Below, one piece after another: positions 22,493-23,511 of a stretch of 26,311 nt of DNA; position 1 is the stretch's first letter, and each line of letters starts with the position of its first letter. The notes under the pieces were generated by a model. That model was not told the DNA's origin. It saw nothing but the letters and a program-made list of their open reading frames with translations, and did no database searches. The stretch is from the NCBI GenBank assembly GCA_048938005.1, contig JBHLMQ010000038.1, forward strand, positions 3,697-30,007. The letters run 5' to 3'. The DNA comes from Promethearchaeota archaeon. GTDB lineage: Archaea > Asgardarchaeota > Lokiarchaeia > Sigyniarchaeales > SOKP01. Both the position numbers and the translations under genes were made by a program.

Positions 22493-22870
22493 TTAAATTT
22501 TTGCCAATTGCTGATATAAATGTGGTAATACTTCTTTAAACGTATCATCTGGTATTTTTTCAAGGATTTCTGCTGCAATCGTCTTTAAAATCTCCCGATA
22601 TTTACCAGGCTTTTCATCTCGTCGAAGTAAAAGAGCAACTACATAATTTTCCACAGAGATAAAATCTTGTCCTACTCCAGAAAAGAAAGAAACTACTTTA
22701 TTGTTCTTCAAACTTATAGATGCAAAACCCGGGCGAAGAGATTGGTAACGATGGCTGGAATATACTTGCGTGAGCAGATTATTCGTTATTTTCAAAGTAT
22801 CGGGATAGAAGCCTTCATTAATAGGTCCAATCTCATTATCCCAGCGAATTACAAGAATACCAACAGGCAT
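22493..22870 (-). CDS. Stand-alone longin/uDENN-like domain protein
   Basis: N-terminal ILVIRWDNEIGP....YP, beta-rich core, C-terminal helix; 125 aa. Confidence 0.6.
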   Translation of the reverse strand: MPVGILVIRWDNEIGPINEGFYPDTLKITNNLLTQVYSSHRYQSLRPGFASISLKNNKVVSFFSGVGQDFISVENYVVALLLRRDEKPGKYREILKTIAAEILEKIPDDTFKEVLPHLYQQLAKI

Positions 22871-23113
22871 GATTTTTTACCGTTCAGTTTATCTATTTTA
22901 CAGTAATTACGTAGATTTATTTCTAGACTTAATTCAATAATAATTATGATATTATTTTAATATCTTACTTTTATTTATTTCTTTTTATTTTTATGTATAT
23001 CTTATCTAACCATTAATACAAGTTTAATCTCTAATATCATTTAAGCTAAGAAAAAATTTAAATTAAAATTATAACTTTGATTTATTGTTACCCTTAAAAG
23101 CTTAGAATTATAG

Positions 23114-23121
23114 TTTATAAA
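23114..23121 (+). promoter_or_regulatory. TATA box of the tRNA gene
   Basis: TTTATAAA about 30 nt upstream of the mature tRNA 5' end. Confidence 0.55.
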
Positions 23122-23149
23122 AAACGTTTTGACCAAAAATCCTAGCATT

Positions 23150-23347
23150 GGAGAGGTTACCGAGTTTGGTCAAATTGATCAAGGTAAAAAAGGCCGTTAC
23201 ATGTTCTTACAAGGGTCAAGACTATAGGTGCTGGACTTAAGATCCAGATACCAAGGTTAATGCTTTGGTAGGGTAATGGCAAAGGCCTTCGTGAGTTCGA
23301 ATTCTGTTTAACCGCATCGGTTACAGCAGAAAGTCTCACCCTCTCCA
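23150..23347 (+). tRNA. tRNA-Leu(UAA) with three introns (exons 23150-23173, 23226-23247, 23277-23301, 23334-23347)
   Basis: Spliced product is 85 nt: GGAGAGGTTACCGAGTTTGGTCAA-AGGTGCTGGACTTAAGATCCAG-TGGCAAAGGCCTTCGTGAGTTCGAA-TCTCACCCTCTCCA. Acceptor GGAGAGG/CCTCTCC with discriminator A, anticodon stem CTGGA/TCCAG around CT-TAA-GA, variable arm GGC-AAAG-GCC, T-stem GTGAG/CTCAC. CCA is not encoded. Confidence 0.93.
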
Positions 23348-23511
23348 TTTTATCTTTACTCTCTAAAAAAGATTATATTAGTTTAAAAGGTTTTATTAAA
23401 AATCTTAAGAAAATTCATGCCAAAAATATGAAAACTTAAATATTATACGTGGAGTTATAAAAATTACCAATTAAAAAGTTTTATAAAAAGCTAAAGAGGG
23501 AAGAAAAAGTA

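Follow-up and report, generated by a model that had tools for sequence, protein, structure and literature searches.

Multiple and non-canonical bulge-helix-bulge (BHB) introns in the tRNAs of the Thermoproteales were reportedly described by Sugahara in 2008 and by Marck and Grosjean in 2003. The Asgard archaea form a second and closer precedent. They were found to carry an (alpha-beta)2 EndA with an L1 loop, and their incomplete tRNA sets were interpreted as a sign that disrupted genes had gone undetected (Kaneta et al. 2018, PMC5829648). In Atabeyarchaeia and Freyarchaeia, 92–95 % of the tRNA genes were then recorded as having introns, more than half of these genes with several (Valentin-Alvarado et al. 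2024, PMC11291895), and a preprint has since reported up to five intervening sequences per gene, repeated gains, D-arm introns that are preferentially missed by tRNAscan-SE, and an EndA made up of two paralogues in 44 of 60 genomes (Goswami et al. 2026, 10.64898/2026.10.13.758758). Our literature search for Loki-specific reports found only Kaneta 2018, Valentin-Alvarado 2024 and Goswami 2026, and names beginning Lokiarch or Prometh are absent from the main text of the last, though its supplements may list such genomes. Since multi-intron tRNAs and this type of EndA are already published for Asgard archaea (2018, 2024, 2026), the locus described here adds a further, well-supported example to a kind of element that was known before. 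Though an earlier reading of this DNA made from the letters alone (the sequence-only reading) described triple-intron tRNAs as best known from the Thermoproteales, these are no longer the only well-known case, as the Asgard archaea have been published as more intron-rich (PMC11291895; bioRxiv 10.64898/2026.10.13.758758).

The stretch of DNA analysed, referred to as the window, is 26,311 nt long and belongs to a Promethearchaeota (Lokiarchaeota-type Asgard) MAG, a draft of 101 contigs that is 95 % complete; the archaeal proteins encoded in the window include a proteasome subunit and an inositol-phosphate synthase. Positions 23150–23347 on the forward strand very probably constitute an intron-split tRNA-Leu(UAA) gene of this Lokiarchaeota-type archaeon, the sole detectable one in its genome, with three protein-spliced introns. 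The gene consists of four exons of 24, 22, 25 and 14 nt and three introns of 52, 29 and 32 nt, all read on the plus strand. Exon 1 (23150–23173) supplies the 5′ strand of the acceptor stem, U8, the 5′ strand of the D-stem and the D-loop through position 21, and exon 2 (23226–23247) the 3′ strand of the D-stem, position 26 and the entire anticodon arm with the anticodon UAA. Exon 3 (23277–23301) includes the class II variable arm, the 5′ strand of the T-stem and the T-loop through position 59, and exon 4 (23334–23347) includes T-loop position 60, the 3′ strands of the T-stem and acceptor stem, and the discriminator A; CCA is not encoded. The T-rich trailer that follows (23348–23360, plus strand) may, as read from the sequence, act as a transcription stop.

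Removal of 23174–23225, 23248–23276 and 23302–23333 leaves a product of 85 nt that ARAGORN calls as tRNA-Leu(taa) with a score of 111.4, which is the clean 85-nt class II tRNA-Leu that the sequence-only reading had predicted. The G+C content of the spliced product is 51.8 %, compared to 29.8 % for the genome. The ARAGORN drawing shows an acceptor stem of 7 bp, the discriminator A and a class II variable arm, the variable region being 14 nt long with a 3-bp stem. Leucine identity elements in archaea include A73 and a long variable arm, and both are present together with the other features of a class II tRNA-Leu (anticodon UAA, U8, A14, G18-G19, U33, T54-T55-C56 and A58). Removal of the introns restores a canonical cloverleaf tRNA, as it does for archaeal EndA/BHB introns.

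The locus resembles the Asgard multi-intron tRNA genes (PMC11291895; 10.64898/2026.10.13.758758) in having an Asgard host and several short introns at non-canonical sites that include the D-arm and the T-arm, and also in having D-arm introns missed by gene finders, intron sets that differ between relatives, and a two-paralogue EndA. It differs from the cases on which those papers are centred (Atabeyarchaeia, Freyr- and Jordiarchaeia) in that it belongs to a Loki-type genus and in that one essential gene was followed across 20 species. Features in common with the Thermoproteales are as many as three introns in a gene, relaxed motifs and a predicted dependence on an (alpha-beta)2 EndA that has the specificity loop. 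However, the phylum is different, the genome at 30 % G+C is mesophile-like, and a BLAST search of the locus revealed, among the own-genome matches listed, no copies of the introns elsewhere and no sign of the same intron having been copied between genes, unlike in the Thermoproteales.

The sequence-only reading had also suggested that standard tRNA finders may miss the gene, and neither ARAGORN nor the Rfam tRNA model detects the unspliced locus. ARAGORN found 0 genes in the unspliced window and 0 in 23100–23400 even with the intron option. The Rfam search of the unspliced locus gave nothing at gathering thresholds, and when E values up to 10 were allowed only three matches, each attributed to chance, were obtained (lncRNA, psbT-asRNA and histone stem-loop). 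Genome-wide, 25 matches to the Rfam tRNA model were above threshold, none of them here. Five orthologue loci, single-intron orthologues included, also gave no tRNA match in Rfam, the only scores being sub-threshold ones to the tmRNA clan (16–23.6 bits vs a cut-off of 47). Both tools thus overlook the one tRNA that the genome has for the leucine codon it uses most, and because both are blind to such genes, draft Loki-type genomes will look tRNA-poor unless intron-aware curation is applied.

The region 23050–23450 was also screened blind for strict and relaxed forms of the BHB motif. This produced 20 candidate introns that can be arranged in 74 non-overlapping combinations, and any ARAGORN tRNA was obtained from only four of the 74, among them the triple proposed in the sequence-only reading, which goes beyond a chance fit. 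An alternative second intron at 23262–23279 scored slightly better in ARAGORN (113.0 vs 111.4), giving a tRNA of 98 nt, and was rejected, because orthologues that have identical exons and lack the intron join 23247 to 23277. The precursor folds at −72.7 kcal/mol (z = −6.4) and none of 200 shuffled sequences folded as well.

A DNA search of 40 relatives yielded 30 loci, 20 of which were examined; L014, truncated at the end of its contig, and L022–L030, which are weak matches to the flanks or to another tRNA, were left out. Each gene was aligned to the mature sequence with insertions allowed freely and without the use of any splicing motif. After removal of the insertions, ARAGORN called an 85-nt tRNA-Leu(taa) from all 20. 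The number of introns varies from one (four loci) through two (seven loci) and three (eight loci) to four (one locus, L006), so that, though triple-intron tRNAs had been described as rare in the sequence-only reading, they are not rare in this lineage. The insertions occupy site 21/22 in 20/20 orthologues, site 43/44 in 6/20, the variable arm after mature base 50–52 in 6/20 and after base 57 in 1/20, and site 59/60 in 10/20, with further insertion sites in L018 and L019, which come from other families of the order. At least six sites are filled in differing combinations across the 20 species, and the mature sequence is nearly fixed. L006 (G021 contig 4, about 1500–1760) has one intron more than the gene in the window, its four lying at 21/22, 43/44, the variable arm and 59/60.

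Exon 1 is identical (24/24) in six of the 19 other orthologues, and exon 2 matches at 22/22 positions in the 17 same-genus orthologues other than L020, for which the match is 20/20. In L002, L003, L005, L013 and L017 the exons are identical throughout (85/85), with three, two, two, one and one introns, respectively. L002 has all three introns in common with the gene in the window, and when the two were compared the introns matched at 45/52, 24/29 and 27/32 positions and the 60-nt flanks at 43/60 and 40/60. Fixed exons with diverging introns and flanks are what a functional tRNA would be expected to show if its inserts can be removed. The species with identical exons and from one to four introns provide clean before-and-after pairs for studying the gain and loss of archaeal tRNA introns, a question that was left open in the preprint (Goswami et al. 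2026, 10.64898/2026.10.13.758758). In L014 (G001 contig 124, about 175–250) there is a partial second copy approximately 13 nt downstream of the Leu(UAA) gene, made up of the anticodon arm's 3′ half, a piece resembling a shortened intron 2, the 5′ half of the T-arm and sequence resembling intron 3. This copy has the appearance of a remnant left by duplication or recombination.

Introns 2 and 3 are absent, exactly, from several of the orthologues with identical exons. Exons 2, 3 and 4 are contiguous in L013 and L017, and L003 and L005 miss only intron 3; the junctions of both introns are therefore fixed to the base. The motif-free alignment to the intron-poor orthologues placed both introns at the same bases as the motif did. 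Intron 2 (23248–23276, plus strand, 29 nt) lies at position 43/44 and has a canonical BHB motif with a central helix ATCC/GGGT, bulges AGA and AAT, and an inner helix of 8 bp; this is itself the local minimum-energy fold of the segment. Among the six orthologues with this intron, 91.7 % of 72 pair cells were paired compared to 28–53 % when the partners were slid, a small sample of related sequences, and one compensatory pair (A-U to G-C) was found.

Intron 3 (23302–23333, plus strand, 32 nt) lies in the T-loop at 59/60, and the approximate limits given to it in the sequence-only reading proved to be exact. Its junctions can be slid by one base without altering the product. The motif is relaxed but of an accepted form: the outer helix is the 5-bp T-stem, the central helix has three of four pairs with a G-A mismatch, and the 3′ cut falls after the second base of a 3-nt bulge that lies beside a long intron hairpin. 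The same relaxed pattern is common to all 10 T-loop introns of the orthologues. Under the strict motif rule, a canonical motif was found in only 14 of the 46 insertions in the orthologues. The minimum-energy fold of intron 3 competes with the motif register, and the global fold of the precursor does not contain motifs 1 and 2; forcing both raises the energy to −62.4 kcal/mol, a cost of about 10.

Intron 1 (23174–23225, plus strand, 52 nt) lies at D-loop position 21/22 and has a canonical BHB motif, in which GGTC (23168–23171) pairs with GACT (23220–23223) to form the central helix, flanked by bulges AAA and ATA and a 6-bp inner stem TTGATC/GGTCAA. As for intron 2, the local minimum-energy fold of the segment is the BHB itself. 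The coordinates, helices and bulges that had been assigned to introns 1 and 2 in the sequence-only reading, and the inner stem of intron 1, are all present in the sequence, and the gene identity, the intron number, the positions (21/22, 43/44 and 59/60) and the cut sites were all borne out. Shifting the junctions of intron 1 by one base likewise leaves the product unchanged. Across the orthologues the length of the insertion ranges from 24 to 62 nt. The central helix at this site has 4/4 pairs in 18/20 orthologues, and its intron strand varies in other families (GACT, GATT or GGCT) with pairing kept. The 50–52-nt forms are canonical. In the 32–33-nt form (11 orthologues) the 5′ cut falls in a 5×5 internal loop rather than a 3-nt bulge and the 3′ cut in a bulge that separates the central helix from the D-stem, giving a bulge-helix-loop arrangement.

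None of the 20 orthologues is intron-less at 21/22 and, because every one of them carries intron 1, its splicing is predicted from the motif. The universal presence of the insert would also be consistent with introns 2 and 3 being spliced while the D-loop insert is not an intron, and either stays as an expanded D-loop or leaves by another route. The strong conservation of its last 13 bases, which repeat a hexamer of the exon D-loop, and the lack of a canonical 5′ bulge in the 32–33-nt inserts are further points in favour, and the possibility that certain D-arm insertions are not introns has been raised before (Goswami et al. 2026, 10.64898/2026.10.13.758758). Nevertheless, we consider this very unlikely. 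The 50–52-nt inserts are canonical BHBs, and the length and interior of the insert vary while the pairing of the central helix is kept. A retained 52-nt insert would, from established tRNA structure, be expected to break the contacts of G18/G19 with the T-loop, and in tRNA-Leu(GAG), which this genome also encodes, the D-loop is uninterrupted and normal in size. In addition, the Aeropyrum pernix EndA cuts both D-loop introns and bulge-helix-loop substrates (PMC3241643). Removal of intron 1 by the same splicing route as introns 2 and 3 is our preferred reading.

The last 13 bases of intron 1 (23213–23225) are nearly invariant across the order (20 loci), and the hexamer copy within them may mark an origin of the intron by local duplication. 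In the 32–33-nt introns the copy has no pairing partner, which suggests that the short forms derive from the long one by internal deletion or replacement. Treating the downstream GGTCAA copy as the exon was rejected by reasoning, as six extra bases would then stay in the D-loop. No box D of a box C/D guide RNA was seen in intron 1 when the sequence was inspected by eye.

The need for this gene is apparent from codon usage, TTA accounting for 357 of the 724 leucine codons (49 %) among the 7707 codons in the 22 open reading frames of the window. The sequence-only reading had advised a check for another Leu(UAA) gene in the genome, and none was found: 890 UAA anticodon-like stem-loops were examined as 66,691 spliced variants and only this locus was positive. 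ARAGORN with introns allowed (-i) found 30 tRNAs genome-wide and no Leu at all. A search with a D-arm pattern found a Leu(UAG) gene, with an insert of approximately 33 nt in the same region of the D-loop, and the Leu(GAG) gene, which has an intron at 31/32 and another in the variable arm. A genome-wide motif screen, in which 1509 G+C-rich regions were processed as 780,976 spliced variants, led to 25 clusters, recovered the Leu(UAA) gene and corrected several ARAGORN mis-calls.

It could be argued that the locus is a decaying pseudogene that retains its inserts, with UUA read by a gene that is unassembled or undetected. The genome is, after all, an incomplete draft, the screens miss genes with weak motifs and left approximately 13 expected anticodons unfound, and none of the 20 sequencing runs (nine studies) that contain the region is of RNA. 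Yet the exons are identical across species while the introns and flanks diverge, a foldable tRNA is kept in all 20 orthologues, and the motifs lie exactly at the junctions. Relatives represented by a single contig (G022, G006 and G033) were also searched, and the orthologues in G022 (L003) and G033 (L018) are intron-bearing. The chance that the locus is such a pseudogene is accordingly very slight, and a functional gene remains the preferred reading.

The genome-wide screen also bears on the other tRNA genes of this genome. The intron mode of ARAGORN mis-assigned the genes at C17:103079–103186, C24:133219–133320, C40:11825–11941, C41:35243–35349 and C57:72522–72665, as it requires the intron to lie in the anticodon loop. 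When these genes were spliced according to the motifs, ‘Tyr gta’ becomes Asp(GTC), ‘Tyr ata’ becomes Pro(TGG) at one locus and Cys(GCA) at another, ‘Gln ttg’ becomes Glu(TTC) and ‘Pro agg’ becomes Leu(GAG). The non-canonical introns from this screen cluster between 26 and 37 nt (31, 30, 28, 34, 30, 30, 26, 30, 30, 31, 37, 30, 29 and 32 nt) and the anticodon-loop introns between 17 and 29 nt; at 52 nt, intron 1 is an outlier. A tRNA-Sec gene (anticodon TCA) is present at C97:101872–101964, which fits with the selenocysteine system that has reportedly been found in Lokiarchaeota.

The arrangement of the gene was also examined in independent DNA data. Contigs from runs of three studies cover 23218–23500, which includes introns 2 and 3, with 0, 0 and 2 differences, and one run also covers 23000–23247 with 0 differences. 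In each of the three runs that contain the locus the Logan contigs break at 23218–23247, inside exon 2, which is common to many strains, so that the gene is nowhere spanned by one piece. Run X13 contributed no contig over the region. As exon 2 is shared by co-occurring strains, the three-intron layout could in principle be an assembly chimera, formed from the 5′ half of one strain and the 3′ half of another joined within this exon. This is extremely unlikely given that the flanking pieces in run X1 have 0 differences and similar depths (13.7 and 10.7), and that three introns are found in G019, which independently has the same layout, and in G024, G005 and others that were assembled independently, with four in G021. 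Moreover, each half of a chimera would still be an intron-bearing gene. We therefore continue to regard the three introns as belonging to one gene.

The sequence-only reading had held that the locus implies a broad-specificity splicing endonuclease in this lineage, and the genome encodes an EndA of that type. There are two EndA paralogues (two PF01974 hits), both with N- and C-terminal domains; they lie at L031:1453–2049 on the minus strand and at L032:1210–1827 on the plus strand. The alpha paralogue (198 aa) retains the Tyr/His/Lys triad, the His aligning with the residue that is Ala in 3ajv_B, and its best PDB match is the Aeropyrum pernix alpha subunit (3p1z_B, E 1.8e-35). In the alignment, K56 and R58 of this paralogue correspond to K44 and R46 of A. 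pernix (the K-P-R of 3p1z_B), which lie in the Crenarchaea-specific loop. The second paralogue (205 aa) best matches the M. jannaschii EndA and has Ser in place of the catalytic His, which fits a structural beta subunit. The pair is thus similar to the (alpha-beta)2 EndA of A. pernix (PDB 3P1Z/3AJV; PMC3241643) in the triad, the Lys/Arg of the loop and the lack of the catalytic His in one paralogue, and its assembly, activity and substrate range are predictions from the two protein sequences. In previous work, the specificity loop was shown to confer cleavage of D-loop and bulge-helix-loop introns (Hirata et al., PMC3241643), and deletion of the loop abolished activity (Yoshinari et al., PMC2724299). 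RtcB (a 509-aa frame) and archease are encoded next to one another on contig 57 (C57:59968–61731), on opposite strands with their 3′ ends facing.

The route that we infer, from transcription through cleavage, in whatever order the cuts are made, to ligation, is as follows. The gene would be transcribed as a precursor of approximately 200 nt with introns at 21/22, at 43/44 (the border of the anticodon stem and the variable region) and at 59/60. Local folding of the precursor would form a BHB at introns 1 and 2 and the relaxed version at intron 3, and a heterotetrameric (alpha-beta)2 EndA would cut after the second base of each bulge. The four exons would then be joined by the RtcB ligase, aided by archease, and a CCA-adding enzyme would complete the 85-nt class II tRNA. 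What is known of the splicing mechanism is unchanged by this finding.

Nearly all of the non-canonical introns here are 28–34 nt long. Together with the varied occupation of the insertion sites and the nearly fixed mature sequence, this would fit an insertion process that is still active and constrained by size, as opposed to the slow decay of old introns. The gene could then be a live record of intron turnover, an idea that we put forward tentatively and regard as rather unlikely. One conceivable route of insertion is that EndA and RtcB reverse the splicing reaction and the resulting RNA is copied into DNA.

Two features upstream of the gene were also seen. Most orthologues have in common a conserved block of approximately 50 nt (23057–23107), which here lies 43–93 nt upstream of the tRNA and elsewhere at a spacing that varies from about 10 to about 45 nt; in run X3 the contig depth over this block is approximately 30-fold that of the adjacent DNA. 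The block may serve as a promoter, either for the tRNA or for the divergent gene at 22493–22870; a promoter shared between tRNA genes was rejected, as no second copy of the block occurs in the genome even when up to 6 substitutions are allowed. Closer to the gene, a 9-mer at 23129–23137 is the exact reverse complement of D-loop exon bases 16–24, and the same complementarity is found in L018, from another family, near 1431–1439. This may be due to chance or may reflect pairing between the leader and the exon.
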